Source: a phage
Sequence record: PZ445473.1
Reading direction: 5' to 3' (one strand)
Length of the DNA: 64,000 bases
Under the pieces are notes generated by a model that saw only the letters and a program-made list of their open reading frames with translations, did not search any database and was not told the origin of the DNA. Shown piece after piece: positions 47,723 through 62,972 of this stretch; position 1 is the first letter of the stretch; every line of letters starts with the position of its first letter. Both the position numbers and the translations under genes were made by a program.

Positions 47723-48336
47723 AACGAATCCACCAACGTAATATTATAATTGCTAAGATTTTCAGAGATGTGATGAAAATGTTCCAGAAGTCGCATCGGT
47801 TGCTGACCATAAGAGTCACGAGGTGCTTCTAGATCTACTTGTCCTACCAGTGCACCTTTATAATGCACTTTACCATCTGTAGGGTTGATGTAAATGTAAC
47901 GAGTGACCAATCCATCAAACTCTGGATTGAACAAACTGTAAACCATCTCCCCAGAGATAGAACGACCAATCCCAGGAGCATTTCGAATCTTATTACCCAT
48001 TAAACCCTTTGCTCTCTGACGAACAGGGTTAATATGAGTCCAGCTCACAGTGTTACCGTTATGGAACAGATAACCAACATCAGGTGATTCAAGAATCAAG
48101 GTTGGGTCGAACACTGGAATATTCATCACAGTGTTTCGAAGATTCCCATGCTCGTTCTTGTACCACTGCTCTACAACAAAATACAGAGCCTGCTCTGCTT
48201 CGTGAGAGAAGTCATCGCTGCGGAAGTTACCGCTCTGCTCAACACCAATCACAAAACATGGAAGGTTGATATTACCTGCTCGTTTAGCAATCCATGTACC
48301 GTTATAGTAATGAGAAAAATCAGATACTAAGCTCAC
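47719..48336 (-). CDS. hypothetical protein (amidoligase cluster)
   Basis: 205-aa ORF; start overlaps the upstream stop. Confidence 0.45.
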   Translation of the reverse strand: MSLVSDFSHYYNGTWIAKRAGNINLPCFVIGVEQSGNFRSDDFSHEAEQALYFVVEQWYKNEHGNLRNTVMNIPVFDPTLILESPDVGYLFHNGNTVSWTHINPVRQRAKGLMGNKIRNAPGIGRSISGEMVYSLFNPEFDGLVTRYIYINPTDGKVHYKGALVGQVDLEAPRDSYGQQPMRLLEHFHHISENLSNYNITLVDSL

Positions 48337-48345
48337 GATAACCTC

Positions 48346-49152
48346 TTATGCTACCTGAAGGCGTTTAATCTGCTGGTCCGCTTCTTTAACGTTATTACCG
48401 TTAATGATTTCATGAAGCTTCTCAATCGGAAGGCGAGAGTGCAATGCCATCAGAGTGGACATGTCACACTGCTGAACAACCTTGTCAACCTGATCATAAA
48501 CAAACTTACGGTTTTCACGATCACTAATCCAGAAGTTAGACAGGGAACGATATTCAATACCATAGTCCTTGTAGCGGATTGCAGATGCTTTACCGTAGAG
48601 TTCTTTACGGCGAGTGTCTTTATCCATAATAACTGCTGGGAGGGATAGGAAGTAGTCACACAGCACACCCAGCATCATCTGAGTTTGCAGGGTGATATCC
48701 AAAGCACCAACTACGCCAAGATGTACGTGACCACCGGCAGTACGAAGCCCCTTATTTTGAGAAGTCGGGGATGGGTTCTTCTGACCAGTGAAAGCGTTGA
48801 AATCAGGAGTACATCCAAAGATGAACGCTGATTCATTGAAAGTCTTCATCTCTTCTTCAGTGAAGATGTGAGAGCTAACACCCGGAGCTGTTTCCATGTC
48901 CAGTTTGTTCAGGACATTATTGGTGAGATCGATACCACGTTGCATGTTGTCATTAAACGCTTCAAAACCACTCTGTGGGTCAATATCAAACTCAGCCAGT
49001 ACGTTGTCCTCTTGAAGACGAACATCCTTAGCCAGAGCGATCTTATCGTCCTTAGAACAACCTAACAGACCAGCTACAGAAGTGATGATTCCTTTGCTGG
49101 TACGAACGAACATTTCCGGATCCGATCCTATTAAGAATTTGCGCTTAGTCAT
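48346..49152 (-). CDS. hypothetical protein, possible second COOH-NH2 ligase-type enzyme
   Basis: FLIGSDPEMFV and GGHVHLGV loosely resemble ligase E..E/H.H motifs. Confidence 0.35.
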   Translation of the reverse strand: MTKRKFLIGSDPEMFVRTSKGIITSVAGLLGCSKDDKIALAKDVRLQEDNVLAEFDIDPQSGFEAFNDNMQRGIDLTNNVLNKLDMETAPGVSSHIFTEEEMKTFNESAFIFGCTPDFNAFTGQKNPSPTSQNKGLRTAGGHVHLGVVGALDITLQTQMMLGVLCDYFLSLPAVIMDKDTRRKELYGKASAIRYKDYGIEYRSLSNFWISDRENRKFVYDQVDKVVQQCDMSTLMALHSRLPIEKLHEIINGNNVKEADQQIKRLQVA

Positions 49153-50116
49153 TGTAATACTCCACTAGTTCAGAAAAGAGAGATGAGATTGTGTTACCGA
49201 TTTCTTCAGGATTAAGACCAGAATCTATTCCAGTACGCTGAATTATTCGTGCTGTAAAGTTTTGTACTGTAATGTTTTCCAACTTATTATCTATTGCTTC
49301 ACGTTTGTGACCATAACAGTTGGACCAGAGTTTTAACCACTCTGACATTGTTTCATACTCATCTGGATCTTGATCTTTAGCACGAGCAAATCTTCGTAAG
49401 ACATCTGTGTTGTGGTTACGAACATAACCATTCTCGTTGTCACCAACACCGAAGGGGTTTTGAACCCATACTTGCTTCGTGTATTCATCAGAGTCAACAA
49501 CCAAAGGAAGGAATGCTGCTGCTGACATATTGTTGTCAATAACAACAGACGTGCTTTCACTACTCCCATTGGAAGCTCCTCGTTGAGACCACCTACCAAA
49601 GAAGTCACGACCCAACCCAGCTAACAACAGAGCGATGCCAATGCGTTTACGCTTCAGCCACTCTTCCCTGTCTTCAATTCCTTCTGCTAGGAAATCCATT
49701 CCACGATACTGCCCTTCCAAAATGCTACGGAAGAGCATAAGTCCTGTGAAGATTTGATCTGCTGGATGCTCACGGAGGTTGACAGCTACGCTATTCGCTG
49801 AAGTGATTGTGAATACATCGCGATAGCAAGACATGGAGTTCATAATATCTGCTGTTTCAACCAAGTTCTTTTCAATATAAGATGCATCATGACCGTGAAA
49901 AGAGTGAGTCCAGTAATTCAGCATCTCCAGTTGCAAGTTGATATCACGGTTGAAGCGTCTATAACGCCCCTCTTCCATGATAACTTCGCCATTAATATCG
50001 CTTACACATTGGCCTTGCATGTAGTTGTGAATACCGAAGCACCCACGACCTAAGAACTTCTGTTCCCCTAAATCTTGTTGAAGATTCAGAGGTACGATCG
50101 TTGTGGAGATTGACAT
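49145..50116 (-). CDS. hypothetical protein (amidoligase cluster)
   Basis: 323-aa ORF. Confidence 0.45.
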   Translation of the reverse strand: MSISTTIVPLNLQQDLGEQKFLGRGCFGIHNYMQGQCVSDINGEVIMEEGRYRRFNRDINLQLEMLNYWTHSFHGHDASYIEKNLVETADIMNSMSCYRDVFTITSANSVAVNLREHPADQIFTGLMLFRSILEGQYRGMDFLAEGIEDREEWLKRKRIGIALLLAGLGRDFFGRWSQRGASNGSSESTSVVIDNNMSAAAFLPLVVDSDEYTKQVWVQNPFGVGDNENGYVRNHNTDVLRRFARAKDQDPDEYETMSEWLKLWSNCYGHKREAIDNKLENITVQNFTARIIQRTGIDSGLNPEEIGNTISSLFSELVEYYND

Positions 50117-50126
50117 AACTAACCTT

Positions 50127-51323
50127 TTATTTTCCTAAAAATAATCCGCTCATAATACCATCCCACTCAGAGGATGGAATCACTGAATACTCCGAACTTT
50201 GGTCCAGAGTTCCACTACTAAATCTCTGAACAATGTTATAGATGTTGAACAGGTCTTTAGCCTCAGTACGGATACCGTAGACTAATTTATCAGATGTTCT
50301 TTCATCTTTAGATACCCGACGAGCAAAATTAACCAGAAGGTTGTCACATTTAAGCGTTTCTGACCCACTCTCTACCAAATCAGGGTGCATCACAGGCAAG
50401 AACATCGAGTTATTGACTCGCAACTCTGCTGTTTCGTCATTCTCATAATGAATCCACTTAAAGTCTTCATCACGGAAGTGACCACAACCGTCTCTGTACG
50501 ACTGCTGACGCCAAGGCACTTTAAATGCTTTAGCATACTTATCAGCCATGCCAACTGTAAACAACGACGCTGGGAAGATGCAAGCATCCCAATCATTACC
50601 GACCAGAGTTGCTTTCGTTTCACCCAAGAGGTTAGTATAAGTGCTAATCATTCGGGAATAAATATAAGCCTGAAGGATTGTCCAACCTTCAATCAACCAT
50701 TTATGAAGGAAGGTTTCAACTTGACTCTCTTCGTCTTCGCAATAGAAGGTTCGGTCTAGCATTAAATAGAACAGACAACGATCAGCAGGGATGTTCTCAG
50801 TTGCTACACCCATAAAACCTTTCTCGTGCCAGCGTAAACAGGAGGGACGATCTTTGTCCACAAATGCTTCCATAGCTTCCAGTACAGCACGAGGTGAGGT
50901 TTGGTATTCAGGGTTTTTACTATTCCAACGATCAATGTTGTTCTTAGGAGGTGTGTCTTCATCTTCATACGAACACCAACTTAAAGCTTCAGATACGTGC
51001 TTTTCATCACACCAATGCCTAAAACCTAACATCTTCATGTGAGTTCCGGAGTTCCAGATATGCTTGATTTTACACATATCCATCTCTCGGCTTAACAGGA
51101 ACTCTTCCCCATCAGCGCTACGAACGTTAGCTTCTTCATTCCACACTCGAACGTGCATATTCCACCCATAAGTTGCCTCATACGTGTTAGGGTCGAAGTA
51201 TTCATATTCGTCATCATCTTCATCAACGCCACCGTTATAGTTGCGGAGCTGAAGGAATCCATAGCAAGGAGGATAGACCGTTAAAACTCTACCTTCAATA
51301 TCTTCTAATGTTACTGGAAACAT
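50127..51323 (-). CDS. hypothetical protein (amidoligase cluster)
   Basis: 398-aa ORF. Confidence 0.45.
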   Translation of the reverse strand: MFPVTLEDIEGRVLTVYPPCYGFLQLRNYNGGVDEDDDEYEYFDPNTYEATYGWNMHVRVWNEEANVRSADGEEFLLSREMDMCKIKHIWNSGTHMKMLGFRHWCDEKHVSEALSWCSYEDEDTPPKNNIDRWNSKNPEYQTSPRAVLEAMEAFVDKDRPSCLRWHEKGFMGVATENIPADRCLFYLMLDRTFYCEDEESQVETFLHKWLIEGWTILQAYIYSRMISTYTNLLGETKATLVGNDWDACIFPASLFTVGMADKYAKAFKVPWRQQSYRDGCGHFRDEDFKWIHYENDETAELRVNNSMFLPVMHPDLVESGSETLKCDNLLVNFARRVSKDERTSDKLVYGIRTEAKDLFNIYNIVQRFSSGTLDQSSEYSVIPSSEWDGIMSGLFLGK

Positions 51324-51334
51324 TATACCAACCT

Positions 51335-51697
51335 CTATTGGTTTTTAATCAACTCAATAGACTTACGGATATAAAGAATATCTCGGAAGTTTCTGTAGTT
51401 GTTCATAAATTGATGCTTCTGGAACTCAGCTTCTTCCAGAGCTTTCTTTGCGTCTGCATAGCCCTTACGAGCAAGATATACAACACGCTCTGGTAACATG
51501 TTTGCACGATGGATTAGATACTTGTGAGCTTTCATGTTGCTTTGCTCACGAGCAATCTTACCTTTAGCAACTTTGATACCATTTGCAATCCAAGCAAGTT
51601 CTTGCTCAAGCTCATCGTTGGACATTCCACCGAGGTTTGATGCAACCTTGTTCAGAGTTTCAATATTAACGTTGCCCTTGATGGGACGTGTATTCAT
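51335..51697 (-). CDS. hypothetical protein
   Basis: 120-aa ORF. Confidence 0.4.
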   Translation of the reverse strand: MNTRPIKGNVNIETLNKVASNLGGMSNDELEQELAWIANGIKVAKGKIAREQSNMKAHKYLIHRANMLPERVVYLARKGYADAKKALEEAEFQKHQFMNNYRNFRDILYIRKSIELIKNQ

Positions 51698-51699
51698 AC

Positions 51700-51852
51700 T
51701 TACTCCTGTTGTTTACACTCGTCAATAACCCACTGATAAGTGGATTGCCCAGAAAAGAAACACTGAATAAATCCAGACGTTCTCTGCGTTACCAGTGCTA
51801 GTGCACAAATCACTACCGCTGCTGCTAGCAGTTTTAAATCTAATTTAGACAT
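51700..51852 (-). CDS. small signal-peptide protein
   Basis: Internal ATG at 51852 with GAGAGG RBS; MSKLDLKLLAAAVVICALALV. Confidence 0.35.
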   Translation of the reverse strand: MSKLDLKLLAAAVVICALALVTQRTSGFIQCFFSGQSTYQWVIDECKQQE

Positions 51853-52052
51853 ATTTCCTCTCTTTGAATTTAAAAAAGGACTCTCCGAAAAGAGCCAAGC
51901 TTTAAATCCAAAAAAGATATTACCCAATATCTGTGGATAACCTGCTCTTAAAATATCTATCCGACGGATGTTTGAGGAACACTCCTCGCCCTAGCATCGG
52001 CCCCATACGGGAAATAAATTAAGATTAGGTTAGTTGAGTCAGAATAACTCAC

Positions 52053-52078
52053 ATAGCCTTCTCCGGAAGAAGGCTATA
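52053..52078 (-). promoter_or_regulatory. conserved hairpin element at gene 3' end (copy 1)
   Basis: CTCACATAGCCTTCTCCGGAAGAAGGCTATA; shares an 11-mer and stem with the copy at 55278-55303; no U tract. Confidence 0.4.
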
Positions 52079-52082
52079 GATG

Positions 52083-52316
52083 TTACTCGCCTTTCTTAGC
52101 ACGATCTTTGGCAGTTTTGCCAGTGCGGATGCGGTGTGAAACGTTAACCAGAGTGCCGCCATCAACTACGGTAACGCTCTTGTTTTTAGCCAGATCAAAC
52201 ACAGCCTTCTCTGTGCCACCCAAGCGAATTTGCTTAGGCTCACTGAAGGTTTGGGTTGATTTGGATTGGAACTGGAACGGTTGACGGATTGCATCAATTG
52301 CACTTACTTTAGACAT
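52083..52316 (-). CDS. hypothetical protein
   Basis: 77-aa ORF. Confidence 0.4.
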   Translation of the reverse strand: MSKVSAIDAIRQPFQFQSKSTQTFSEPKQIRLGGTEKAVFDLAKNKSVTVVDGGTLVNVSHRIRTGKTAKDRAKKGE

Positions 52317-52388
52317 AGGGGAAATTCCTTAAAAATTCATGGCTGCGTAGAGGGAATTCCCTACGCAAATTGGGCCGCCTAAAAAGAG

Positions 52389-52410
52389 GCGTCATAGTAC
52401 TAAAAGGAGG
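52389..52410. promoter_or_regulatory. conserved 22-nt element GCGTCATAGTACTAAAAGRRGG (copy 1)
   Basis: 18-nt core identical to the copy at 57932-57949; contains the palindrome TAGTACTA. Confidence 0.4.
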
Positions 52411-52616
52411 AGAGAAGAGGGCTTATTTAGCTACCTTTTTCTGACCATTTACGAACCAGATAATTGTGCCATCAGGCTGCCGTTGACCGAAGCCTTTAAT
52501 AGTTAGCATGTCTTCCGAAAACTCTTTAAAAGTAATCATTTACTTATCCTTACATTAGAGTTAATATGATCTCTGCTTTGGCAAACTTCTCACCAACTTC
52601 GAGAGTATCAGCAATC

Positions 52617-52862
52617 CTACTCCTGAACCACAGACATACGAATCATTTCCACCGGAGTGTCACCCTTCATAACACCCAGCACACCAGACATAAGGTTAAC
52701 TGTGGTAATCCAGTCTTTTTCTACAGAGATTTTGCTGGACACATTGGCAACACGCATATAATACTGAGGTGATGCTGAACCTCGCTGGACTACGAAAGGA
52801 TTTCCGGGGATGATAGTATCCAGCGGATGTGTGTTATCTTTAATCTTAGGGATAATTTTCAT
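52617..52862 (-). CDS. hypothetical protein
   Basis: 81-aa ORF. Confidence 0.4.
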   Translation of the reverse strand: MKIIPKIKDNTHPLDTIIPGNPFVVQRGSASPQYYMRVANVSSKISVEKDWITTVNLMSGVLGVMKGDTPVEMIRMSVVQE

Positions 52863-52870
52863 CTTGATTC

Positions 52871-53182
52871 CTATTTAAGTTTGAGGCTGATATTAAGGTG
52901 CATACACGCCCTGTTCTGTACAGCGGCATAACTTCTGCCGAGCATGTCTGCCATTCTCTGAATAGGCATGAACCCAGCATTACGAATAACAAACTGATCT
53001 TCTTCTTCCGTCCACTTGACACGAAGAGTAGCTCTGGAAATTTTGAACTTGGTACAGGCTGTGTTAACAGCATTCTCTGTAACATTCATAATCTGAGCAA
53101 CCTCTTGAACCGAGTACTCTTTGATCAGTCTCCGAAGATTTTCAATCTGCATCGGAGTCCATATAGTTCTTCGTGCTTTCAT
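52871..53182 (-). CDS. putative transcriptional regulator with two HTH-like segments
   Basis: SVQEVAQIMNVTENAVNTA and IQRMADMLGRSYAAVQNRA; GGAGGG RBS; first gene of the leftward arm. Confidence 0.4.
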   Translation of the reverse strand: MKARRTIWTPMQIENLRRLIKEYSVQEVAQIMNVTENAVNTACTKFKISRATLRVKWTEEEDQFVIRNAGFMPIQRMADMLGRSYAAVQNRACMHLNISLKLK

Positions 53183-53676
53183 ATACCCTCCAATTAAACA
53201 TTTATATAAGACTTGCTTAGATAAAGATTCAATAAAATAGGGGGAGGGGACGAATCCTCCCTTATCCTATTAATTAGTATTGCATGTAAGACCTAACAAT
53301 CGGTTTCCTTTGTAGGAATAAGCGTTATGCTCATCCAGCACTAAACTCCCGCCCCCTTAGTGGGCTGGGTTATTAAAGGGTAACGCCCTTATGGGCTAGT
53401 TACGTGAATGTTAGTTTGATAGGAGATCTGAAGTCCTATCTCAAAGGACTCTCGTAAGAATCCTTCACGATAAGCTCTTAATATACTAATCCGTGTAAGA
53501 GAAACACTCTCTTAGTTAACTCTGCTTTAGCTCTGTAATAAGCCGTAGAACCTAACAGGCGGCTCTTAACAAAGAACTTGATGTCATTGCTTACGTCTTG
53601 TATTAAACGCTCCTGTACAGCTTCTGAGGAGCTATTAATTGAATCAATTAACACCTTTGTAGATGTGTAATTCACA

Positions 53677-53958
53677 TCACCACTCCTTACCGGTTGTAGT
53701 TGTAGAGCCACCACACCACTGTGCATTAGATAAGGTTTTAGTCTCCTCATCCATTGCTGCACCATTCATGCATGAGATACCATTGTAACGCATATCAATT
53801 TCGCCAGAAGGAACCTTCTCACCTTTATGCCAGCGAGATACACAAATACCTTCCACTGCTACTGCACACCATCCATCAGGACGGCTCTGTACGCAGCCTG
53901 TAAGGGCCACACAGACAATGAAGATACAGATTAAGGATATTACACCACCCCAACTCAT
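53677..53958 (-). CDS. lipoprotein
   Basis: Signal peptide with lipobox LTGC (MSWGGVISLICIFIVCVALTGC); AGGAG RBS. Confidence 0.5.
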   Translation of the reverse strand: MSWGGVISLICIFIVCVALTGCVQSRPDGWCAVAVEGICVSRWHKGEKVPSGEIDMRYNGISCMNGAAMDEETKTLSNAQWCGGSTTTTGKEW

Positions 53959-53977
53959 AACTATCTCCTAATTGATT

Positions 53978-54022
53978 TGGTGCGCCCTACAGGATTTGAA
54001 CCTGTAACCAATAGCTTAGAAG
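53978..54022 (-). pseudogene. tRNA 3'-half remnant (anticodon loop, T-arm, acceptor 3' strand, CCA) lacking a foldable 5' half
   Basis: Minus-strand CTTCTAA GCTAT TGGTT ACAGG TTCAAAT CCTGT AGGGCGC A CCA; no complementary 5' acceptor or anticodon strand upstream. Confidence 0.4.
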
Positions 54023-54056
54023 TAAAACTTCTATCCTTGTAATGAAGTTTTCATTG

Positions 54057-54131
54057 TGGCGTTCCCTCGTGGAATCGAACCACGAATAAGAGCTTAGAAG
54101 GCTCCAGTTATATCCGTTTAACTAAGGGAAC
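54057..54131 (-). tRNA. tRNA-Arg (anticodon UCU)
   Basis: Hand-folded cloverleaf: acceptor GTTCCCT/AGGGAAC, D stem GTTA/TAAC, anticodon stem GGAGC/GCTCT, loop CTTCTAA, T arm CGTGG-TTCGATT-CCACG, discriminator G, CCA. Confidence 0.8.
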
Positions 54132-54137
54132 ATTACA

Positions 54138-54488
54138 ATGAAAACTTGCACAACCTGTCACACCCAAAAGGAAGATTCAGATTTTTACAAGAAAGGAGAT
54201 CGACTTCATTCTATGTGTAAACAATGTTTCAATGCCTACTGTATTGAACGTTGGAGGCAAAGAAAGACTCAAGCGGTTAAAGATTTCGGAGGTAAATGTC
54301 ATGACTGCAATCAAGAATACCCCGATGCAGTCTTTGATTTCCACCACCTAGACCCCTCTGAAAAAGATTTTGATTGGAATAAACTTAGACTCCGATCTAT
54401 TGACTCTATCAGAGAAGAGTTAAGCAAGTGCGTAATGCTCTGTGCTAACTGCCACCGTATTCGTCACATTGATTACCCTATCCATTGA
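54138..54488 (+). CDS. HNH endonuclease-like protein
   Basis: CTTCH...CKQCF zinc motifs, FDFHHLDP and LCANCHRIRH; lone plus-strand gene next to the tRNA. Confidence 0.55.
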   Translation: MKTCTTCHTQKEDSDFYKKGDRLHSMCKQCFNAYCIERWRQRKTQAVKDFGGKCHDCNQEYPDAVFDFHHLDPSEKDFDWNKLRLRSIDSIREELSKCVMLCANCHRIRHIDYPIH

Positions 54489-54562
54489 GCTAAGAGCGCT
54501 TAATTTATTTAGATCATATCTCGCTTGGTGATAGGACCACACACTTTACATTCATACCAACC

Positions 54563-54814
54563 TTAAGCACATGCAGGGAGTGTGATGATTTCAGGTTTAC
54601 CTTCGAACTCTTCAAACAAACCCAAGAATGTAGGGCTATACGTACCAGTACAAACAAACTCATCAAAGAGTTCATTGTATGAGGGCTTAATCTTCCAAGC
54701 CCACACATAGCCCATCTTATCAATTGCAATGTAACGAGTGTTTAGAGGAACAGTCATCATCACACCATCAACTTCGACCACTTTAGTGATTGGTGCAGCT
54801 TGGAAGTTTTTCAT
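54563..54814 (-). CDS. hypothetical protein
   Basis: 83-aa ORF. Confidence 0.4.
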   Translation of the reverse strand: MKNFQAAPITKVVEVDGVMMTVPLNTRYIAIDKMGYVWAWKIKPSYNELFDEFVCTGTYSPTFLGLFEEFEGKPEIITLPACA

Positions 54815-55277
54815 ACTTTACCCTTAATTAAAACAACAAAGGCCACCCGATTGGGCAGCCTTTTTTATTTGTTAACTGTTATAGATCCAATTACCTTGCT
54901 TGTTACGGATAGTGGACATTGCATGAACCCAGAAGCCTTCCAGTTTCAGAGCACCATTAGTTACTGCATCCATACGTTCAGGGCGGTTCATACGTTTGGT
55001 TGATACTTTCATACCTATCTCTCTCTTTGTTAGTGGAGGCATTATTGCCAGTTGATATAGCAGATAACCCTATTAAAAGGACTACCGACTATCTAAACTG
55101 GTGAAGACTCCCTACCCCTAGAGAGTCTCCTGAATCCCAAACCAATATGTACCCCTACATATCGGAAAGTCTACCGAAAATTAACAGGTTTTAGTCTAAC
55201 ACCGGATGTTCGAGCAAGCTCTCCCTAGCGGTGTGGCATATGCCTGATTTAATAAGTTAATGAGGAACACCCTCACA

Positions 55278-55303
55278 TAGCCCTCTGATAAGCACAAGGG
55301 CTA
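55278..55303 (-). promoter_or_regulatory. conserved hairpin element at gene 3' end (copy 2)
   Basis: CTCACATAGCCCTCT-N-AGGGCTATA, 11 nt past the stop of 55314-55610. Confidence 0.4.
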
Positions 55304-55313
55304 TAAGTCGGTG

Positions 55314-55610
55314 TTACTTGTCGGCTTCAATCTCTTGATGCTTAGCTATAGCTACTCTCAAGTCCTCATTAGCACGAGTAAGGCGTAATACTTCATGGTT
55401 GAGATTCTGAAGACGCTTGTTTCTATCTTCAACTTGCGTAATAAGATCATTAAGAGTTTCTTTAACTTTCTCACTATACATCTCATCCACTCGGACTAGA
55501 GATTTGTACATTCTCTCCCAGCTTGCTGCTTTGTTCCTAAGGATAATAAATCCTATAACGCTGATAGTTAAACAGCTTACAAAAAGGAATTTATATATCT
55601 CTAAAGTCAT
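55314..55610 (-). CDS. membrane-anchored coiled-coil protein (i-spanin-like architecture)
   Basis: N-terminal TM FLFVSCLTISVIGFIIL then charged helical region. Confidence 0.4.
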   Translation of the reverse strand: MTLEIYKFLFVSCLTISVIGFIILRNKAASWERMYKSLVRVDEMYSEKVKETLNDLITQVEDRNKRLQNLNHEVLRLTRANEDLRVAIAKHQEIEADK

Positions 55611-55809
55611 ATTATTTACCCTTTATCAGAGATTAAAAGTAATATTATTTAAGTAAGTTATATTTAGTAAACTTATTTTCTAAGAAATTTTCAAAGGGTC
55701 TATATACAGAGCATTACCCATAGTCCCAGAACACTACCATCTTTTTCAATAAATTTACTAAGTGGTTGGTTTATAAAGGAATTTAGTTTGTCAAATCTGG
55801 CACTAGAGA

Positions 55810-56199
55810 TTATTCCCTAGAGCTATTATCGAACACTAAATCACCACAATACATAGGATTGGCATACCATTTTGGCACCCCTTCGCTCTTACTCTGAAAG
55901 TAAGTCCCACTATACAGCGGAACATAATTCTTCTTAAGGGCACGTTTAGCAAGTCGCTCGCTTTCTCCAATGGCTTGCTTAGTCATCGGATTTTTATCAC
56001 GAATCAGCTTTACATAACGTTTATAAGGTTTCTCCTGTTTTAATAGTACCGGAATCCACTCAAACTGGTTCTTTTGTCTTATCACCTGTTCAGCGGTCAG
56101 TTTTCGTTGGGCCATTCTATTTATCACGGTATCCGCAACTAAAGCCTTACATGCGGTTGGCTGATTCCCTGCCTCATAATAAATAGTCAATGTCAACAT
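55810..56199 (-). CDS. cell wall hydrolase (SleB/Hydrolase_2-like)
   Basis: TIYYEAGNQPTACKALVADTVINRMA ... NQFEW resembles the SleB-type hydrolase N-terminal motif. Confidence 0.5.
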   Translation of the reverse strand: MLTLTIYYEAGNQPTACKALVADTVINRMAQRKLTAEQVIRQKNQFEWIPVLLKQEKPYKRYVKLIRDKNPMTKQAIGESERLAKRALKKNYVPLYSGTYFQSKSEGVPKWYANPMYCGDLVFDNSSRE

Positions 56200-56453
56200 T
56201 AGCTGGGCCGTTGTTATCAGAACTTGCTACCTCCTCTCAGGATAAAACACCTTTCATGTATGCCTTACTCGAAGCCCTCCTTGTGGCTTTTAGTATGGAT
56301 TGCTTAGCCTTAGTCTTAGCTTCTTCTGTCATTCCATCAAAAACACCGAGCTTAGTTAGCTCCTTACTAGGAGGCTTATAGGAAGGGTTTAAAGCATTAG
56401 ATAAATTATGACCATAGGCATGACCACGGCACAATAAAGAAGAAAGATTAAGC

Positions 56454-56819
56454 CTATGGATTTACACATTGACCGTTACCGGATGCGATTTCATTCATTG
56501 ACTCATCAAACAAGGTTAGGGATGAGCGCATCAAGTGATCGACCGTGATTTGTTTACCGGTAGTTTCATTTACCAGTTGAATAGTTTTATCATATGATTG
56601 CACATGATCGAAATCATTTACATGCAAAATAATAACTTTAGGTGACTTTTTACCAGTCGAATAGTTTTCTATCAAATAGGTGCACTGTAAACCTTCCACC
56701 GTATCAGGGGAAAATGTTGCAGCCTTTACACTACCCATAGCCGATAGGAGAACGCCCAGCAGGAGAACGACCAGAAAAAAACCTACAACCATTTTAATGA
56801 TGAATTTAATAAACCACAT
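56454..56819 (-). CDS. membrane-anchored periplasmic protein
   Basis: N-terminal TM FFLVVLLLGVLLSAMG then soluble domain with two Cys. Confidence 0.4.
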   Translation of the reverse strand: MWFIKFIIKMVVGFFLVVLLLGVLLSAMGSVKAATFSPDTVEGLQCTYLIENYSTGKKSPKVIILHVNDFDHVQSYDKTIQLVNETTGKQITVDHLMRSSLTLFDESMNEIASGNGQCVNP

Positions 56820-56922
56820 AACTATAAACCTTTTAATCAGAGGATGTAAGAATAAAGCATATCAGCGACGAATAACGCCACTGTAACGACGAATAAGCAA
56901 CGCCAGAAAAAATCATTAAGCA

Positions 56923-57168
56923 TCATTTTAATCCGTGATTCAGTAGGTTCGCCAGTGATAGCCCACCGTCAAAATAAATTGAACGGAAGTCATCGCGGGT
57001 AATTTCAATCCCTACAGCAGATAACCAATCTTTGGCCTTTTTAAAATCCATGACGCAGAAAGTAACGGTCGGGATTATTACATCACCAGCTTGCAAGCTA
57101 AACGCAATAAAAGTATCACACACAAAACAAGAAAATCCGCTAGACAATTTAACTTCTTTGATAGCCAT
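56923..57168 (-). CDS. hypothetical protein
   Basis: 81-aa ORF. Confidence 0.35.
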   Translation of the reverse strand: MAIKEVKLSSGFSCFVCDTFIAFSLQAGDVIIPTVTFCVMDFKKAKDWLSAVGIEITRDDFRSIYFDGGLSLANLLNHGLK

Positions 57169-57182
57169 AATTTTAACCCTTA

Positions 57183-57671
57183 TTATTTAGCACTGATGCA
57201 ATTAGCTAGGTTGATGTGTACGGTATAAACCGCATTATTCTCACTATTGTAAACCGTGGTGGCAAGCATTGATTCGTTTATCGGGCCATAACTGACTAGA
57301 TTTGTAACAGCTTTCGCATGTTTGTAACGTTGTACAGTGCCAAATGTAACTAGTTCGGGATCGTTATCAGTGCGCTTTAATAGCAAATCATCATTGCCCT
57401 GATTATCTAGTGTTTTGGTACTAACGACCAGACCATCACGGGAAACGTTACTAAATTTAACCTTTAAGACGATTTGATTGGTGTCACTATCCGCACCGTT
57501 ACAGATTAACCATTTGTTAGGTGCATCCTTCACGAACAAACTAGCGGCATTATTAGCAGAAGCAGAACTAGCGATAGCGTTGTCAGAAAAAGAAGTTACC
57601 AGTGCACTGACACCGATGGCTGTAACCAGTGCATAACTTGCCAGATTAATAGTCTGCATTACTTTCGCCAT
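57183..57671 (-). CDS. secreted protein with signal peptide
   Basis: Cleavable-looking signal MAKVMQTINLASYALVTAIGVSALVTSFS. Confidence 0.45.
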   Translation of the reverse strand: MAKVMQTINLASYALVTAIGVSALVTSFSDNAIASSASANNAASLFVKDAPNKWLICNGADSDTNQIVLKVKFSNVSRDGLVVSTKTLDNQGNDDLLLKRTDNDPELVTFGTVQRYKHAKAVTNLVSYGPINESMLATTVYNSENNAVYTVHINLANCISAK

Positions 57672-57775
57672 TTTTGCTACTCCTTAGATAGAATCAATTA
57701 ACTATTGCCACTTCTATAATACAAAGACGGTATTCAAGGTTACTACTCATACTTATACCTCCTGTTTTACGGGCA

Positions 57776-57801
57776 TAAAAAGCCCCAGCCGTAGCCGGGG
57801 C
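57776..57801 (-). terminator. rho-independent terminator (minus strand)
   Basis: Minus-strand GCCCCGGC-TAC-GCTGGGGC followed by TTTTTAT. Confidence 0.6.
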
Positions 57802-57865
57802 AAACCTGAAAGCAACGCATGACCGTTGCTATAAATACACTCGCAAATGCACTTACAGCAACGCA

Positions 57866-57886
57866 AAAAGCCGCTCAAAGGCGGCT
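57866..57886 (-). terminator. rho-independent terminator (minus strand), in tandem with the previous one
   Basis: Minus-strand GCCGCC-TTTGA-GCGGC followed by TTTTTG. Confidence 0.6.
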
Positions 57887-57931
57887 ATGTGGAAGCTTCA
57901 AATGGGGAGAGGGCACGACGCGGCAGAAAGA

Positions 57932-57955
57932 GCGTCATAGTACTAAAAGAGGGGG
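57932..57955. promoter_or_regulatory. conserved element GCGTCATAGTACTAAAAGAGGGG (copy 2)
   Basis: 18-nt core identical to 52389-52406. Confidence 0.4.
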
Positions 57956-57967
57956 GCTGCATTCCTA

Positions 57968-58411
57968 CTACTTAACCCTTGCTTCTTTGATGGGGTCAAT
58001 GTATTTTTCAACTCCCCACTTGCGTTTACTGTCAGCGTAGAAAACATCAGGTGCACACTGGCTTGTCTTAGGAAATGCTTGCGGGTCTTTCGTGCTACCT
58101 TTAAACTTCTGTTTACCACGGGTGCGACCATTACAGAAGATCTCTAACTTCTTCTCTTCTTCTGTTTTAGCGCCACCGCTCCGTAATAAAGAGCGTTTAT
58201 GATCGGCTAACAATAACGCATCAGCACGATGGACACGATGACCTAAACGTTTTGCCACACTGGAAGGAATATGAGATTCAGCTTCAGCCTTTGCAGCACG
58301 ACGCTTTAAACTACGCTTGCTAACGTGATTGGTTGCCTTTGGTTTCTCTTTCTCCAATTCAGAAATAGAAAAACAACGCCCGCCCTTCATGCTGATTTTA
58401 GATTTAGCCAC
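57968..58411 (-). CDS. hypothetical basic protein
   Basis: 147-aa ORF. Confidence 0.4.
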   Translation of the reverse strand: MAKSKISMKGGRCFSISELEKEKPKATNHVSKRSLKRRAAKAEAESHIPSSVAKRLGHRVHRADALLLADHKRSLLRSGGAKTEEEKKLEIFCNGRTRGKQKFKGSTKDPQAFPKTSQCAPDVFYADSKRKWGVEKYIDPIKEARVK

Positions 58412-58480
58412 TATCTTATTCCTTTCAGTGATAAGTTATATCGGGCAAGCCCATCAAGGCGATAGGCTTGAACAAATAAC

Positions 58481-58690
58481 TCAACCAAGTAAACCAAATG
58501 ATTTCCAACTACGCAGTAAGATCGTACCATCATCCATAGTTACGCATAATTTTAGTAGTCGCTTACTGGTACTGCTCACCGTTGTGATTCGTCCGGTTGT
58601 GCATTTACCTTTATTGCTATAAAGATATATAACACGATGGCCTAACAAACGAGATGGCGCTTTCTTAAATTCTGAGATGTTAGTGATCAT
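58481..58690 (-). CDS. hypothetical small protein
   Basis: 69-aa ORF abutting the next gene. Confidence 0.35.
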   Translation of the reverse strand: MITNISEFKKAPSRLLGHRVIYLYSNKGKCTTGRITTVSSTSKRLLKLCVTMDDGTILLRSWKSFGLLG

Positions 58691-58908
58691 TATCCATATA
58701 CCTTAACATGATTGATTCGACGTGAATGATGATAAGAAGACTCAACAGCCATTGCCTTTAATTCTTCTTTTCGTTGGTTAGTGTGTACAATATCCCAATG
58801 ATTATGATCGTGTTGGCGCTGTAATATCTTACTACATTTGCGATGGTTTCCCGTGCTGCGACGTTTCTCACAAATAGGACACTTGCCAAAATTATTACTG
58901 AATATCAT
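58690..58908 (-). CDS. small Cys/His-rich protein
   Basis: GKCPICEKRR...HDHNHWD. Confidence 0.35.
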   Translation of the reverse strand: MIFSNNFGKCPICEKRRSTGNHRKCSKILQRQHDHNHWDIVHTNQRKEELKAMAVESSYHHSRRINHVKVYG

Positions 58909-59132
58909 TTTCTCAATCCTAACTTTCTTAAGACACGGCCTAACGTTGTTTCTTGGGTGATAATATACCTGACCGCTTCACGTTCCAACGTTTCAATCTT
59001 CATTGGCGACGGATACCATTCACCGGTAAGCATACACCTATACTCAACGCCATACTTTTTAGATAGGCGGTAATGTTGACCGTTGATAAGGTTCCTATAA
59101 ATCGTGGTATGCGTCGTTAACATAATCGTCAC
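58905..59132 (-). CDS. hypothetical small protein
   Basis: 75-aa ORF with overlapping stop/start. Confidence 0.35.
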   Translation of the reverse strand: MTIMLTTHTTIYRNLINGQHYRLSKKYGVEYRCMLTGEWYPSPMKIETLEREAVRYIITQETTLGRVLRKLGLRK

Positions 59133-59235
59133 CTTTGATTAGATTCTTTGATTAGTACACTGAATCAATGCACTGATAAAAGAAAAGGCGCTACCCGTTA
59201 AAGATAGCGCCTCATGTTTATTTAGATTGTCTTAC

Positions 59236-60144
59236 TTATGCCGCCTGACGTGCCGCCATAATTTCAGCCGCTTTACGCAATACTTCTTCCTCTTCTGCTT
59301 TCGCCGCTTGTTCGGTACGGGTAGCAACCGTTGAAGAGATACGACCGCGCAGACTTTCTAACTTCTCTTGCATAGCTGCGATGGTCTTTTCCATTTCATC
59401 AGCGTATGAATCCAGTGATTCCAATTCCTTGCTTGATGCGTTCATCAGATAATCATCCGAGATCGCTACCGTTGAGGCCGTCACTTTCTTGATGAGTGAG
59501 TCGAATGACTTCTTAACCTTGCCGACTTCTTCACTTAAGGCAATAGTGTTATCACTGGTAGCGCCGTTGCGCTCATCGGCCAACAATTTTGCTTCAATAC
59601 GGATTGCATTCAAGCGTTCAACTAAAGCGTAAATATCCTGATTAAAATCTTCCTTGTTTTTCGCCGGGATTTGCAGATGGGCCGCCACGTTGTCATTGCA
59701 ACCTTTATAAAAGTTAGGATTATCCACTTCAATTGCACGACCTAAAGCAAAATTCTCGAAAGCATTCGACCAGCGAGCGCGGTTTTGTTCCATTTTGGCC
59801 TTAATTTGCGCTTCTTTCGCATCTTCTTTCGCTTTCGCCTCGCCTTCCAGATTAATCCATTTTTTACGACCGTTCGCCGCCTCGGTGTTAAACTTGATTG
59901 GAGTTAAGAAAGTAATTGCAGTGGCAATAACATCCATATCGCGGAAACGTTCAGTTAACAGAAAATCGACCGCCGCTTGCAATACATCTAACTTTTTACC
60001 GTTGCTGCGAAAGTGCTGCAAATGCCCTAAAAGGAAGTTAGAAACATCTTGTTTAATCGCCGCGTTATTTTTGCGGATGTTGTTTGCCAGCGCGTTAAAA
60101 CCGGATTCTTTTACCAGATTAAAAACTTTAGCCATGATATTCAC
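59236..60144 (-). CDS. hypothetical helical protein
   Basis: 302-aa ORF; GC- and CpG-rich by eye. Confidence 0.45.
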   Translation of the reverse strand: MNIMAKVFNLVKESGFNALANNIRKNNAAIKQDVSNFLLGHLQHFRSNGKKLDVLQAAVDFLLTERFRDMDVIATAITFLTPIKFNTEAANGRKKWINLEGEAKAKEDAKEAQIKAKMEQNRARWSNAFENFALGRAIEVDNPNFYKGCNDNVAAHLQIPAKNKEDFNQDIYALVERLNAIRIEAKLLADERNGATSDNTIALSEEVGKVKKSFDSLIKKVTASTVAISDDYLMNASSKELESLDSYADEMEKTIAAMQEKLESLRGRISSTVATRTEQAAKAEEEEVLRKAAEIMAARQAA

Positions 60145-61062
60145 CTTTCAATTATAAGGGCACTATTGCCCCGCTCGCTATGAGCTTTTAAGCCATTATT
60201 GACTTAGCTATAGTCACTCACTAATAAATAACTATAGGTAAGCGGAGCGGTCTTATCAGGAGTTAACCTTGCCGCTCCCTTATCCGTGGTCTTTCATCTG
60301 GTGGATTCAATTAATCGCTATAAAGAAAGCCGATTTGCCAGCGATGATCAATCACCACAATAAGGCTAGTGTGTCCGACCCTAATTAGTTACAATAATGC
60401 AACCGTCGGCAATATCGTTTACTTTGCTTTCGCTCCCGCCTATCCTTTTATATCAGCTCTTTATCGCTAGTCATCGCCCACTACGGGATACTATTGCGAA
60501 AAAGTCACTAACCGCCTATTATTCCGGCGTTTTATATCTTTCAACGGGTTTACTACATTACCCGACTATGTACTTTCATCATCAGACGAATCTCAAGCCG
60601 TTCGCATCGTAAACGTTCACACTGACACCTTATTGTTAAATAGCAATTCGCTACTCTTTAACCGTTCGCCGCCGCTCTCAATTGAGCGTTAATTCGTCGG
60701 GATTGCCTACCCTGATCAACTTCTTTCACCGTAGCGCCTTTTTAGCTAGGCCGCCGCTACCCATTAACCGTGGGCGATTAGTTTTAGCCTTGCGTGCACT
60801 CGATGAATCCGCTTATCAGTGGTGACGTTTCCAGTTAAGGGATTGTAAAGCTGTTTACCCTGATAATTTAGGGAGCTTTACGCCGTTTTATCTGGTATGT
60901 TTTCCGATGGTCATTATCATCCAACATATGCAACCGATATAGGGGAACGTTTAAATTATTAAAGAGCGGTAAATCTGTCAGTGTGCTTTCTCACACTACG
61001 CAACTGTTAGCCGTTGTGTCGCTTTTTCACTGAAGCGGTGATTTGCTTAGTGACTTGTGCTC

Positions 61063-61091
61063 ATTATGAACCATGTTGTTTTAGTTGTCAA
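61063..61091 (-). promoter_or_regulatory. sigma-70-type promoter (minus strand): -35 TTGACA, 17-bp spacer, -10 CATAAT
   Basis: Plus TGTCAA 61086-61091 and ATTATG 61063-61068; A-rich tract upstream on minus strand. Confidence 0.5.
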
Positions 61092-61372
61092 TCACTTTTT
61101 TAATCTTTTTTCGTCGCTCCCCTTATTGGGAGGATATATCAATCAGCTATATTTGATTGAAGATTAAGCGATGAATGCTTAAACTTATGATTCATATTTT
61201 TAAAGAGCGGTGGAGCATTTACAGCTTAACACGTCGTGTTAGCTTGTCAATCTCTTTTTTTATCGTCTTCTTTGATTCTCTTCCCTTATCTCGCTTGATT
61301 CTATGCGAAAGGGCAAGACGATAATTTTTTAAAGAGCGAGATGTTTTAAGTCATCGCTGACCTTGTACACTC

Positions 61373-61400
61373 ATTATAGGTTAGGCTTTTCAGTTGTCAA
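61373..61400 (-). promoter_or_regulatory. sigma-70-type promoter (minus strand): -35 TTGACA, 16-bp spacer, -10 TATAAT
   Basis: Plus TGTCAA 61395-61400 and ATTATA 61373-61378; A-rich tract upstream on minus strand. Confidence 0.55.
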
Positions 61401-62052: not shown

Positions 62053-62122
62053 AAACGGGTATTAAATGTATAGGATGGTATACACGGGGCAATAACTGCA
62101 CGGGATAGGGCACGGGAAAAGT
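62053..62122. repeat. clustered ACGGG-core repeats
   Basis: AAACGGGTA, ACACGGGGCA, GCACGGGATA, GCACGGGAAAA within 70 bp; TACACGGG recurs at about 62483 and 62622. Confidence 0.4.
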
Positions 62123-62969: not shown

Positions 62970-62972
62970 TTT

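Follow-up and report, generated by a model that had tools for sequence, protein, structure and literature searches.

In the annotation, the early arm of the phage studied here is a row of small hypothetical genes between which gaps are left unexplained, and the question raised by this locus is what two families of repeated elements between these genes do. The window, the whole stretch of 64,000 nucleotides that was analysed (PZ445473.1), is Escherichia phage JacquesWildberger_Bas92, a phiEco32-like phage, at 100% identity. Phages of this type are a model for phage control of the host RNA polymerase (gp36 sigma factor, gp79) and are used in therapy collections. An earlier note, made from the letters alone, had taken a hairpin occurring twice for an RNA processing or stability element, and an 18-mer occurring twice for a palindromic operator. 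The hairpins and the 18-mers lie on the minus strand of the leftward early arm, 3' of three strong sigma70 promoters at ~61400-61063, and both families are RNA-level parts of the leftward early transcript.

The gp36 promoter of phiEco32 is a single element, tAATGTAtA, 6-8 bp 5' of the start (PMC8948821, PMC4281155). No gp36-type promoter (TAATGTATA) was found within the 46-61 kb early arm; the exact copies of the motif in the window are at 3136, 20084, 28543, 28615 and 33349. Pfam scans of ten neighbouring proteins gave a sigma-region-4 HTH in the gp99 homologue as the sole notable match, and no RNA-binding or nuclease domain. The part of the literature on phiEco32, SU10 and 7-11 that was consulted describes promoters and four terminators and mentions neither element family.

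The repeated hairpins are parts of longer stem-loops

The hairpin repeats are present at 52053-52078 and 55278-55303, as had been claimed. On the transcribed minus strand they read UAUAGCC...GGCUAU, then GUGAG, and they start 4 nt and 8 nt past the UAA stop codons of the ORFs at 52083-52316 and 55314-55610, respectively. The string CACATAGCC occurs four times, against 0.27 expected, and just two of these copies belong to the family. The absence of a U tract 3' of both hairpins, where GUGAG... follows instead, was also borne out, and the terminator scan listed neither. Since there is no U tract, the family is not one of intrinsic terminators, in agreement with the earlier note.

Each repeated hairpin is the upper part of a longer stem-loop, P0-P1, which begins in the stop codon and in both copies is made up of a P0 of 6-7 bp, an internal loop and a P1 of 10-14 bp. 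P0-P1 is itself the first of 8-14 helices in a conserved structured region of 230-290 nt. The processing or stability reading thus holds insofar as it places the element at the level of RNA from the minus strand, but the 26-nt hairpin to which it was attached is just the 5' helix of larger covarying RNAs. Such a role for the extended P0-P1 stem-loop is still the most plausible reading. In both A and B, P0-P1 lies between cistrons and is an irregular helix of ~20 bp interrupted by an internal loop, as in RNase III sites of the T7 early type. The elements are, as stated earlier, not explained by the annotated genes; two small annotated ORFs that overlap them are probably spurious.

Two paralogous structured RNAs share a core

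The two regions, referred to as copies A and B, are paralogous structured RNAs without a counterpart among the described RNA families. Copy A spans the interval from the gp93-homologue stop codon to its own terminator U tract, occupying the whole gp93/gp90 intergenic region. Its parts, all on the minus strand, are as follows.

51866-52092, minus strand: structured RNA copy A, ~227 nt (alignment, RNAalifold, pair counts, folding energy)
52042-52088, minus strand: extended stem-loop P0-P1 (helix 1: 15 pairs, 98.9% paired, 2 with double changes)
51939-52032, minus strand: three-way-junction domain (helices 2 and 3)
51959-52011, minus strand: shared core (pattern and covariance-model matches)
51916-51933, minus strand: hairpin P6, AGAUAUU-GGGU-AAUAUCU (alignment and fold)
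51872-51896, minus strand: intrinsic terminator GGCUCUUUUCGGAGAGUCC followed by U6 (terminator scan; helices 7 and 8)

The P0 lower stem of A (GAGUAAC/GUUAUUC) includes the UAA stop codon (52085-52083), its P1 upper stem (UAUAGCCUUCU.../...AGAAGGCUAU) is the hairpin at 52053-52078, and GUGA forms the 3' side of the internal loop. The junction domain is closed by an invariant P2, UAACCU (52032-52027)/AGGUUA (51944-51939), with a covarying 5-bp extension in which three of the five pairs show a compensatory change. Within the core are P3 (CCC-GUAU-GGG), P4 (CCGAUG/CGUCGG), the loop CUAGGGC/AAACAUC and P5 (GAGGA-GUGU-UCCUC); P3, P4 and P5 each show compensatory changes when the E. coli clade is compared with the Salmonella clade. 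Hairpin P6 is missing in three 7-11-type Salmonella-phage sequences, 7-11 among them, and is poorly conserved in the other two. The last hairpin (51896-51879) and its U6 have the form of an intrinsic terminator, which lies ~450 nt 3' of the first 18-mer site; UUUAAAG flanks it and pairs with its U tract, and the terminator helices are kept in all 18 sequences, Salmonella phages included.

The gp113/gp112-type intergenic region is taken up by copy B, which does not end in a terminator.

55036-55320, minus strand: structured RNA copy B, ~285 nt here and ~345 nt in phiEco32 (alignment, pair counts, folding energy)
55266-55315, minus strand: extended stem-loop P0-P1 (16 pairs, 100% paired in 13 sequences)
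55197-55244, minus strand: shared core (pattern and covariance-model matches)

The P0 lower stem of B pairs AACACC (55315-55310, overlapping the UAA at 55316-55314) with GGUGUU (55271-55266); it is 100% paired, one position varying between C-G, U-A and U-G. The P1 upper stem, UAUAGCCCUU/GAGGGCUAUG, is the hairpin at 55278-55303. The core of B consists of P3 (GGC-AUAU-GCC), P4 (ACACCG/CGGUGU), the loop CUAGGGA/GAACAUC and P5 (GAGC-UU-GCUC). It is collinear with that of A: a RUAU hairpin, P4, an invariant 7x7 internal loop (CUAGGGN/NAACAUC) and P5, the nucleotides flanking P5 being exclusively A/G, C/A or A/A and never a Watson-Crick pair. Despite the common core, the 3' parts of A and B differ.

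Conservation and covariation

Copy A is conserved in 104 phage records and copy B in 99. The nucleotide identity of A with the Salmonella phages 7-11 and pSal-SNUABM-01 is 69-73%, and its intergenic region is the sole non-coding stretch of the 15-kb arm that aligns to these two genomes, apart from one 33-nt match in pSal-SNUABM-01; the rest of the arm aligns only over parts of the enzyme genes in the amidoligase cluster (GATase, COOH.NH2 ligase, amidoligase). The identity of A with SU7 is 89%, compared with 73-84% for the neighbouring coding sequences.

Support for the two folds is strong. Among 18 distinct sequences of A, evaluated by RNAalifold and pair counts, 54 pairs were 98.9% paired, and among 13 of B, 84 pairs were 98.1% paired. 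With structures derived from the same alignments on which they were tested, and with shuffles that ignore the kinship of the sequences, both sides had changed in 12 pairs of A (shuffles 7.7 ± 1.5, 0 of 500 reaching this value; slid controls 0-3) and in 15 pairs of B (0 of 500 shuffles reaching this value; slid controls 1-2). The independent compensatory events are few, because most of the changes separate just two or three clades. The minimum free energies, -75.3 kcal/mol for A (z = -4.68) and -98.6 kcal/mol for B (z = -4.79), are those of the minus strand, whose fold is 13-21 kcal/mol more stable than that of the plus strand; on the opposite strand, many of the invariant G-U pairs would turn into A-C mismatches.

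A search with a covariance model of the core gave exactly two copies for each of the window, phiEco32 and SU7, and a single copy for each of the 7-11 locus, the pSal locus and a metagenomic phage contig of CVT22-like type (L052); the matches hold by construction, because the model had been built from these very sequences. Scans of sequence collections with the core pattern gave nothing beyond the phiEco32-like and 7-11-like phages and contig L052, other matches (L015, L029, L038 and others) being assigned to chance because the flanking helix is missing. The core is absent from the CVT22 and GAP52 genomes and is therefore not essential to this type of phage. A BLAST comparison of A with 5,426 E. 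coli genomes returned just marginal 50-nt matches (E = 5e-3).

The 18-mer belongs to an intercistronic RNA module

The 18-mer GCGTCATAGTACTAAAAG occurs exactly, as reported, at 52389-52406 and 57932-57949, against 0.06 expected by chance. The sole further match (22004, 3 mismatches) falls within an ORF of 1450 aa and was taken as chance. The two sites are alike beyond the 18-mer, having a pyrimidine tract upstream and, downstream, a hairpin and then CCCAWUUUG.

52317-52422, minus strand: 18-mer module site 1, in the gp94/gp93 intergenic region (sequence and relatives)
57862-57967, minus strand: 18-mer module site 2, 3' of the gp120 homologue (sequence, relatives, terminator scan)

At site 1 the order is pyrimidine tract, CUUUUAGUACUAUGACGC (52406-52389), hairpin CGCCU-CUUUUU-AGGCG, CCCAAUUUG, a second hairpin, GCGUAGGGAAUUCCCUCUACGC (52368-52347), and the gp93 start. 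At site 2, CUUUUAGUACUAUGACGC (57949-57932) is followed by the hairpin AUGACGC-UCUUUCUGCC-GCGUCGU, a C-rich spacer and, at 57886-57869, a hairpin with U5 that has the form of an intrinsic terminator. Both modules are placed just past a stop codon and just 5' of a strong hairpin or intrinsic terminator.

The proposal of a palindromic operator did not survive comparison with relatives. The dyad TAGTACTA becomes TAACTACTA in SU7, TAGCTACTA in IME267 and ECBP2, and CAACTACTG in KBNP1711, and the operator reading fails because the palindrome is broken, while TACTRTGACGC is invariant. Only this off-centre string and the adjacent hairpin are kept across genera. A U run comes after the hairpin in SU7 and KBNP1711, and the SU7 annotation has this hairpin as a terminator. 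The folding energy of the modules is unexceptional (z = -0.3 to -1.6 and +1.2), and there is little covariation to test in the hairpins because their stems are nearly invariant. A small ORF starting from an AUG inside the 18-mer was considered and rejected: it is 27, 17 or 5 aa long depending on the phage, has no Shine-Dalgarno sequence and is not conserved. The second family is UACURUGACGC plus a short stem-loop, the core of a ~100-nt intercistronic RNA module present in two copies, and not a DNA operator.

Comparison with known RNAs

When the window was searched with the Rfam 15 covariance models, the sole match was tRNA-Arg, which was also the only find of ARAGORN. For the A and B regions at E <= 10, Rfam 15 gave noise only (TarB at 19 bits against a threshold of 80, DLEU2_4, SdsR); the classes covered include the group I intron, hammerhead, twister, pistol, hatchet, HDV-like, riboswitches, 6S, tmRNA, Y RNA and HEARO. 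A group I intron was rejected on this ground, and on two others: the genes on either side have stop and start codons of their own, and of the strings in Bas92 B that resemble R and S (AGACUAAA and AGAUAGUCGG), AGAUAGUCGG falls within a variable hairpin, different in each clade. A likeness to tRNA or to an RNase P substrate, a helix followed by UCCA, is present in both copies at non-homologous positions and was likewise set aside.

Among the closest parallels are the T7 early RNase III hairpins (R0.3-R1.3). These also lie between cistrons of a long early transcript made by the host polymerase, begin directly past a stop codon as irregular helices of ~20 bp interrupted by an internal loop, occur in several related copies per genome, and are expected to leave a 3' hairpin that stabilises the upstream message. 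In contrast to the T7 hairpins, with which there is no sequence relationship, P0-P1 is just the first helix of a 230-290-nt RNA with an invariant core shared across phage families, and its cleavage is putative. CpxQ-type sRNAs, the P4 CI RNA and the P1 c4 RNA resemble copy A in being structured, directly 3' of a coding sequence and ended by a terminator with a U tail, and A, like them, could arise from a longer transcript by processing. However, A far exceeds typical seed-pairing sRNAs in size and in degree of structure, neither a target nor a seed was identified, and copy B has no terminator.

The take-off hairpin of T4 gene 60 has the same stem, AUAGCC/GGCUAU (verified in the T4 sequence), which in some A copies carries a UUCG loop, and likewise a UAG in the 5' strand of the hairpin directly after the coding sequence. 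The geometry is nevertheless wrong for translational bypass or read-through, which was rejected: the ORF before A ends at an in-frame UAA two codons upstream of the hairpin UAG (in phiEco32 it ends at a UAG that lies further upstream), the UAG of B is out of frame, and a pair of matching take-off and landing codons is missing. The likeness is probably a coincidence. Surveys of IMG/VR intergenic regions have listed anonymous candidate structured RNAs, with Rfam matches excluded and families left unnamed (Fremin and Bhatt 2023, PMC10690425); A and B are like these candidates in being intergenic phage motifs backed by covariation, some with terminators.

Alternative explanations

A and B could be cis-regulatory leaders, riboswitches or protein-dependent attenuators, in which the core is an aptamer for a ligand or protein and the expression platform, the terminator of A or the ribosome-binding site of the gene after B, gates the genes that follow, among them the amidoligase/GATase/ATP-grasp cluster below A. 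A common core with different 3' parts would suit this, as would the concentration of conserved nucleotides in the internal loop and junctions. The Shine-Dalgarno sequence of the next gene lies ~12 nt past the A terminator, a gap that leaves no room for a promoter, so that the genes downstream of A depend on read-through. An alternative pairing of AAGAGC with the terminator's GCUCUU is possible in E. coli phages, but this candidate antiterminator is not kept in the Salmonella clade, and the same bases covary instead with the P2 extension. The genes downstream of A, B and the 7-11 copy (there, endolysin) are functionally unrelated, the sequence invariance of P1 and P2 is unusual for riboswitches, and no Rfam riboswitch matched; we consider a leader decidedly unlikely. 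That the core is a new self-cleaving ribozyme or other catalytic RNA, cutting the early polycistronic RNA between cistrons, is quite improbable. Many small ribozyme classes are present in phage genomes, the position is intercistronic, and a compact junction with an invariant purine-rich loop flanked by A/G, C/A and A/A recalls several small ribozymes. The models for hammerhead, twister, twister-sister, pistol, hatchet, HDV-like and group I RNAs were, however, unmatched even at E <= 10; the likeness of CUAGGGA...GAAC to a hammerhead core, judged by eye, breaks at the essential G5/A6, and the R/S-like strings of Bas92 B are not kept in relatives. If the elements acted as DNA, A would be a replication origin or DnaA site, and the 18-mer would be the operator of a phage DNA-binding protein, for instance the gp99 homologue. 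In favour of this, every A copy has the same perfect DnaA box (TTATCCACA), the palindrome is present in both Bas92 and phiEco32, and an HTH protein is encoded nearby. Yet the DnaA box (51933-51941) is alone rather than in a cluster, overlaps a paired P2 strand and is absent from B, the palindrome is not conserved, and compensatory changes together with strand-specific G-U pairs favour single-stranded RNA, which leaves this explanation very little probability.

For the 18-mer, a promoter with only a -10 element (TACTAT and a GC-rich discriminator) is unlikely. Site 2 would then yield a small RNA of ~66 nt ending at the terminator at 57886-57869, and site 1 the structured 5' leader of the gp93 mRNA. 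TACTRT retains the -11 A and -7 T that matter most for sigma70, its variable position is a tolerant one, the sequence 5' of it varies freely between genera, and the hairpin would stand at the 5' end of the transcript, with the terminator and C/U-rich single strand of site 2 giving the layout of an Hfq-type sRNA. Against this, there is neither a -35 element nor a TG extension, the promoter scan found no sigma70-like promoter at either site, a pyrimidine stands where the start would be expected, 6-8 nt downstream, a deletion in SU7 removes the spacer needed for the sRNA body, and the gp36 promoter tAATGTAtA (PMC8948821) is not matched. Processive antitermination, with the modules as nut- or put-like signals for read-through of the early-arm terminators, is improbable. 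As in lambda nut and HK022 put, two related copies per genome lie in early transcripts, each a hairpin with a CGCUCUUU-like string, just 5' of a terminator-like hairpin or intrinsic terminators (57886 and 57801; the A terminator), and terminator-like hairpins are enriched on the early arm in the terminator scan (31 against 12 expected). The boxA consensus is CGCUCUUUA, to which the hairpin loop of site 2, CGCUCUUUC, comes close. The match is partial, though: the string is degenerate at site 1 (CGCCUCUUUUU) and reads CGCUCUUC or CGCUUCUUUU in other genera. The hairpin is itself terminator-like in SU7 and KBNP1711, no N- or Q-like partner protein was identified near the elements, and the terminators 5' of site 2 (59213, 61709) have no such element before them.

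A model for the early transcript

The best overall explanation, to which we give a probability of about 0.55, is that these are RNA-level modules that partition the early transcript by processing and 3'-end formation, with a core that would bind a factor; this function we infer from position, structure and conservation. The long sigma70-driven early transcript would be split into segments by A, B and the 18-mer modules. The irregular ~20-bp helix of P0-P1 would serve as a T7-type RNase III or processing hairpin, and a cut within it would give the upstream cistron a protective 3' stem and free the folded domain downstream. For copy A, partial termination at its own terminator may then give a discrete, stable RNA of ~170-220 nt; copy B has no terminator, and its release would therefore need a second cleavage. 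The invariant internal loop may serve to dock a protein or another ligand that the hosts of these phages have in common, and the 18-mer hairpins may act as leaky terminators or stability hairpins in the same transcript.

A length of 230-290 nt with invariant loops exceeds what a plain processing or stability role needs. Tentatively, and with the odds somewhat against it, A and B may form a new class of large phage RNA whose core has a specific biochemical activity, either self-cleavage or the high-affinity capture of a metabolite or host factor, going beyond a processing or stability signal, and which has been exchanged among at least three lineages (phiEco32-, 7-11- and CVT22-like). These lineages share a sigma factor and a host-takeover arm with the amidoligase/GATase/ATP-grasp genes.

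Significance

Two of the largest gaps of the early arm are filled by the two copies of a conserved structured RNA whose internal loop is invariant, and in one of the copies nucleotide conservation equals that of the most conserved enzyme genes. A and B add an RNA layer to the early programme of phiEco32-like phages, and at least two annotated ORFs are flagged as probably spurious. The ~50-nt core and its two natural paralogues make a testable object. If the core merely directs processing, it would be the phiEco32 counterpart of the T7 RNase III sites, useful but ordinary; if it binds a host factor or catalyses a reaction, it would be a new RNA family common to several phage groups.

Two repeated hairpins mark the edges of larger structured RNAs

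Over the 8.5 kb compared, the window is 100% identical to Escherichia phage JacquesWildberger_Bas92 (PQ850610.1; subtract 3721 from a record position to obtain the window position). This phiEco32-like podophage has ~110 related genomes, classed as Kuravirus and Suseptimavirus (Gordonclarkvirinae). Both families of repeats, a pair of hairpins (52053-52078 and 55278-55303) and an 18-mer, lie among the small early genes of the minus-strand arm. The hairpins exist as described in an earlier note (UAUAGCC...GGCUAU-GUGAG on the transcribed strand); they start 4 and 8 nt after UAA, and neither is followed by a U tract. Reading them as RNA-level elements was correct in type, but the note took in far too little: each hairpin is the edge of a much larger structured RNA. 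A long non-coding gap begins with each of them, 51853-52082 for copy A and 55013-55313 for copy B; the phiEco32 counterparts are the gp91/gp90 and gp113/gp112 intergenic regions, respectively.

Predicted elements of copies A and B
52092 to 51866, minus: copy A
Copy A, P0: lower stem GAGUAAC/GUUAUUC, taking in the UAA stop codon
Copy A, internal loop between P0 and P1: GUGA on the 3' side
Copy A, P1: the repeated hairpin of the earlier note
Copy A, P2: invariant long-range helix UAACCU/AGGUUA with a covarying 5-bp extension, closing a three-way junction
Copy A, P3: CCC-GUAU-GGG
Copy A, P4: CCGAUG/CGUCGG
Copy A, core internal loop: 7x7, CUAGGGN/NAACAUC
Copy A, P5: GAG..CUC
Copy A, P6: hairpin; of five 7-11-type sequences, three lack it and two conserve it poorly
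51896-51872, minus: copy A terminator, GGCUCU...AGAGUCC + U6
55320 to 55036, minus: copy B
Copy B, P0-P1: arranged as in copy A, P0 being AACACC/GGUGUU
Copy B, core: P3, P4, loop and P5 as in copy A
Copy B, 3' part: four more hairpins after the core, two with invariant UAGGGGUA loops
Copy B, variable arm: one of these four hairpins, with a 58-nt insertion in phiEco32

The Shine-Dalgarno sequence of the next gene lies ~12 nt beyond the copy A terminator; copy B has no terminator. A perfect DnaA-box 9-mer, TTATCCACA (51933-51941, minus), overlaps the 3' strand of P2 and is invariant in 18/18 A-type sequences, Salmonella phages included; the box stands alone rather than in a cluster, and its surroundings show no obvious unwinding element.

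Support for the structures

The predicted pairs (54 in copy A, 84 in copy B) were scored on the same alignments from which the structures were derived, with standard pairs formed in 98.9% of cells for copy A (18 distinct sequences) and 98.1% for copy B (13 sequences). Twelve and 15 pairs, respectively, are changed on both sides, mostly separating two or three clades. These values were attained in 0/500 shuffles for either copy, a control that ignores phylogeny. Sliding the partners by 1-3 columns left only 0-3 such pairs in copy A, where just 34-51% of cells remained paired, and 1-2 in copy B. The MFE z-scores were -4.68 (A) and -4.79 (B). The minus-strand fold is 13-21 kcal/mol more stable than that of the plus strand, and several invariant G-U pairs become A-C mismatches on the opposite strand, which argues for a minus-strand RNA rather than a DNA cruciform.

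Within the core, the sequences of P3, P4 and P5 change between A, B and a third lineage, yet pairing is kept; P4, for example, occurs as CCGAUG/CGUCGG, UUCGGUG/CGCCGAA, ACACCG/CGGUGU and AAUAGCG/CGCUAUU. GCUAGGG, GAG, CUC and AACAUCCG are invariant across all three. The two nucleotides flanking P5 are A/G, C/A or A/A only and never Watson-Crick, a pattern expected from a conserved non-canonical (sheared-type) pair, which we infer to be present. P0 of copy B is 100% paired in the 13 sequences, one position occurring as C-G, U-A and U-G.

The P1 stem, AUAGCC/GGCUAU (52049-52080, 55276-55305), is identical to that of the T4 gene 60 translational-bypass take-off hairpin, whose sequence we checked against T4 (100% match). 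The phiEco32 and NJ01 A copies also carry a UUCG loop on this stem, and A copies contain UAA-N6-UAG in frame. Bypass of the gene 60 type at P1 was nevertheless rejected, as the required geometry is absent.

Alignments of relatives show indels of 1, 2, 4, 7 and 58 nt in the two gaps, which argues against coding, and the small annotated ORFs Bas92_0083 (33 aa; 55196-55297, wholly within RNA B) and Bas92_0091 ('tail protein', 41 aa, TTG start; 57753-57878, wholly within the 18-mer/terminator region) look spurious and are probably not real genes.

Distribution

Both gaps show nucleotide-level conservation: copy A was found in 104 phage records and copy B in 99. Copy A is 89% identical in SU7, against 73-84% for the adjoining coding sequences, and 69-73% identical in Salmonella phages 7-11, SE131 and pSal-SNUABM-01, of another family (Grimontviridae). 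When the 15-kb arm was compared locally with the 7-11 and pSal-SNUABM-01 loci, the sole non-coding match was the copy A intergenic region (51864-52087/52091); except for one 33-nt match in pSal-SNUABM-01, the rest were segments of glutamine amidotransferase, amidoligase and COOH.NH2-ligase genes. With a covariance model of the core, exactly two copies were recovered from each of the window, phiEco32 and SU7, and a single copy from the 7-11 locus and from that of pSal-SNUABM-01; these matches are partly by construction, as the same sequences went into the model.

When viral, metagenome and genome collections were scanned for the exact pattern, the core turned up only in the phiEco32-like and 7-11-like groups and in one further contig, JBOFGJ010000684.1 (48.7 kb), binned in a Flavobacterium MAG. 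Its B-like core lies in a 245-nt gap (3010-3254) among small early-type ORFs, adjoining an Srd/sigma70-decoy-like gene. The closest phage relatives of this contig are CVT22-like podophages of Enterobacterales (40% amino-acid identity), making the Flavobacterium label doubtful. CVT22-like phages (Zobellviridae) and phiEco32-like phages have in common a phage sigma factor and an amidoligase/GATase/ATP-grasp cluster. Citrobacter phage CVT22 itself and Cronobacter phage GAP52 are without the core; the distribution is patchy.

The 18-mer modules

The 18-mer is exact at 52389-52406 (site 1) and 57932-57949 (site 2), against 0.06 expected by chance; a third match, with three mismatches, lies at 22004 within a 1450-aa ORF. 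Its interpretation as a palindromic operator did not survive comparison. Across genera, the invariant part of both sites is TACTRTGACGC, and the preceding bases vary (TTAG-, TTAAC-, TTAGC-, TCAAC-), destroying the palindrome TAGTACTA in relatives, so that a dyad-symmetric operator is not supported. Instead, the GACGC end is always the 5' strand of a short hairpin with a pyrimidine-rich loop, the stem being GACGC/GCGUC at site 2 and at KBNP1711 site 1, CGCC/GGCG at site 1, and GCCUC/GAGGC in one variant. A U run follows this hairpin in SU7 and KBNP1711, and the SU7 annotation calls it a terminator. Downstream of site 2, at a distance of 35 nt, is a canonical terminator (57886-57869), followed by a second (57801-57782); at site 1 a strong hairpin comes next, then the gp93 start. 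Both sites also have a pyrimidine tract past the stop codon and CCCAWUUUG past the hairpin. They are paralogous modules of ~100 nt, with unremarkable folding energy.

The early arm

Three strong sigma70 promoters lie upstream (~61400, 61250 and 61091) within 150-nt repeats, in agreement with the published SU10/phiEco32 map. This region (60952-61450) has the three tandem promoters in repeats of ~150 nt (D1), one being a perfect TTGACA-16-TATAAT, alongside four copies of a 15-mer repeat, ATTTTTAAAGAGCGG (D3). The exact gp36 (phage sigma) promoter motif tAATGTAtA occurs at 3136, 20084, 28543, 28615 and 33349, with no match in the 46-61 kb early arm. Terminator-like hairpins are ~2.5-fold over-represented on the arm (48000-64000; 31 versus 12.2 expected). 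Minus-strand examples within the early operon (61709, 59213, 57886, 57801, 54863, 53261 and 51896) imply substantial read-through or antitermination.

Other long intergenic regions, at 53183-53477 (ending with a terminator, 53261-53242), 55611-55809 and 57672-57860 (holding the second terminator, 57801-57782), are 74-98% conserved in other genera, the last partially, and may contain further non-coding RNAs. A tRNA-Arg(UCU) gene (54060-54131) is bracketed by a 23-nt inverted repeat (54045-54067/54125-54147; 87% complementary) that prolongs the acceptor stem; an HNH endonuclease gene encoded on the other strand (54138-54488) abuts this locus. The gp99 homologue (52871-53182, minus), annotated 'D5-like transcriptional regulator' and conserved in 7-11, matches the sigma70 region 4 HTH (PF08281, E = 8e-7) and is a possible -35-type DNA binder acting on the arm. 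A 59-nt direct repeat (D2; 56371-56429 and 61703-61761, 5.3 kb apart) is 81% identical.

Possible roles

Most likely, A, B and the 18-mer elements are RNA modules of a long early transcript. The irregular P0-P1 helix of ~20 bp, starting in a stop codon, has the form of a T7-type RNase III/processing hairpin. If the transcript is cut there, the upstream cistron would keep a protective 3' stem and the folded domain would be released; for copy A, which has a terminator of its own, termination would then yield a discrete and stable RNA. A conceivable partner for an RNA of the copy A kind, structured and ending in a terminator, is a protein from the early arm of pSal-SNUABM-01 (7-11-like; 3714-4442), which is annotated as a putative RNA chaperone of the ProQ/FinO family.

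The rival readings are a riboswitch-like attenuator, a ribozyme, DNA-level roles and, for the 18-mer, a promoter or nut site. A -10-only promoter at site 2 may drive a terminator-ended RNA of ~66 nt, but there is no -35 element, TG extension or gp36 motif. The module may alternatively be nut-like, as the site 2 hairpin loop contains a boxA-like CGCUCUUUC.

Searches of Rfam 15 matched only tRNA-Arg, with nothing beyond noise even for each region alone at E <= 10. The A and B elements are not described in the part of the phiEco32, SU10 and 7-11 literature covered, which reports only promoters and a few terminators. Anonymous phage RNA candidates have been catalogued in bulk (PMC10690425), and this element may be among them. 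The main result is an apparently undescribed structured RNA with covariation support, with two copies in each Gordonclarkvirinae genome and a single copy in 7-11-like phages. The invariance of its internal loop points to a protein or ligand, shared by the hosts, that would bind there.
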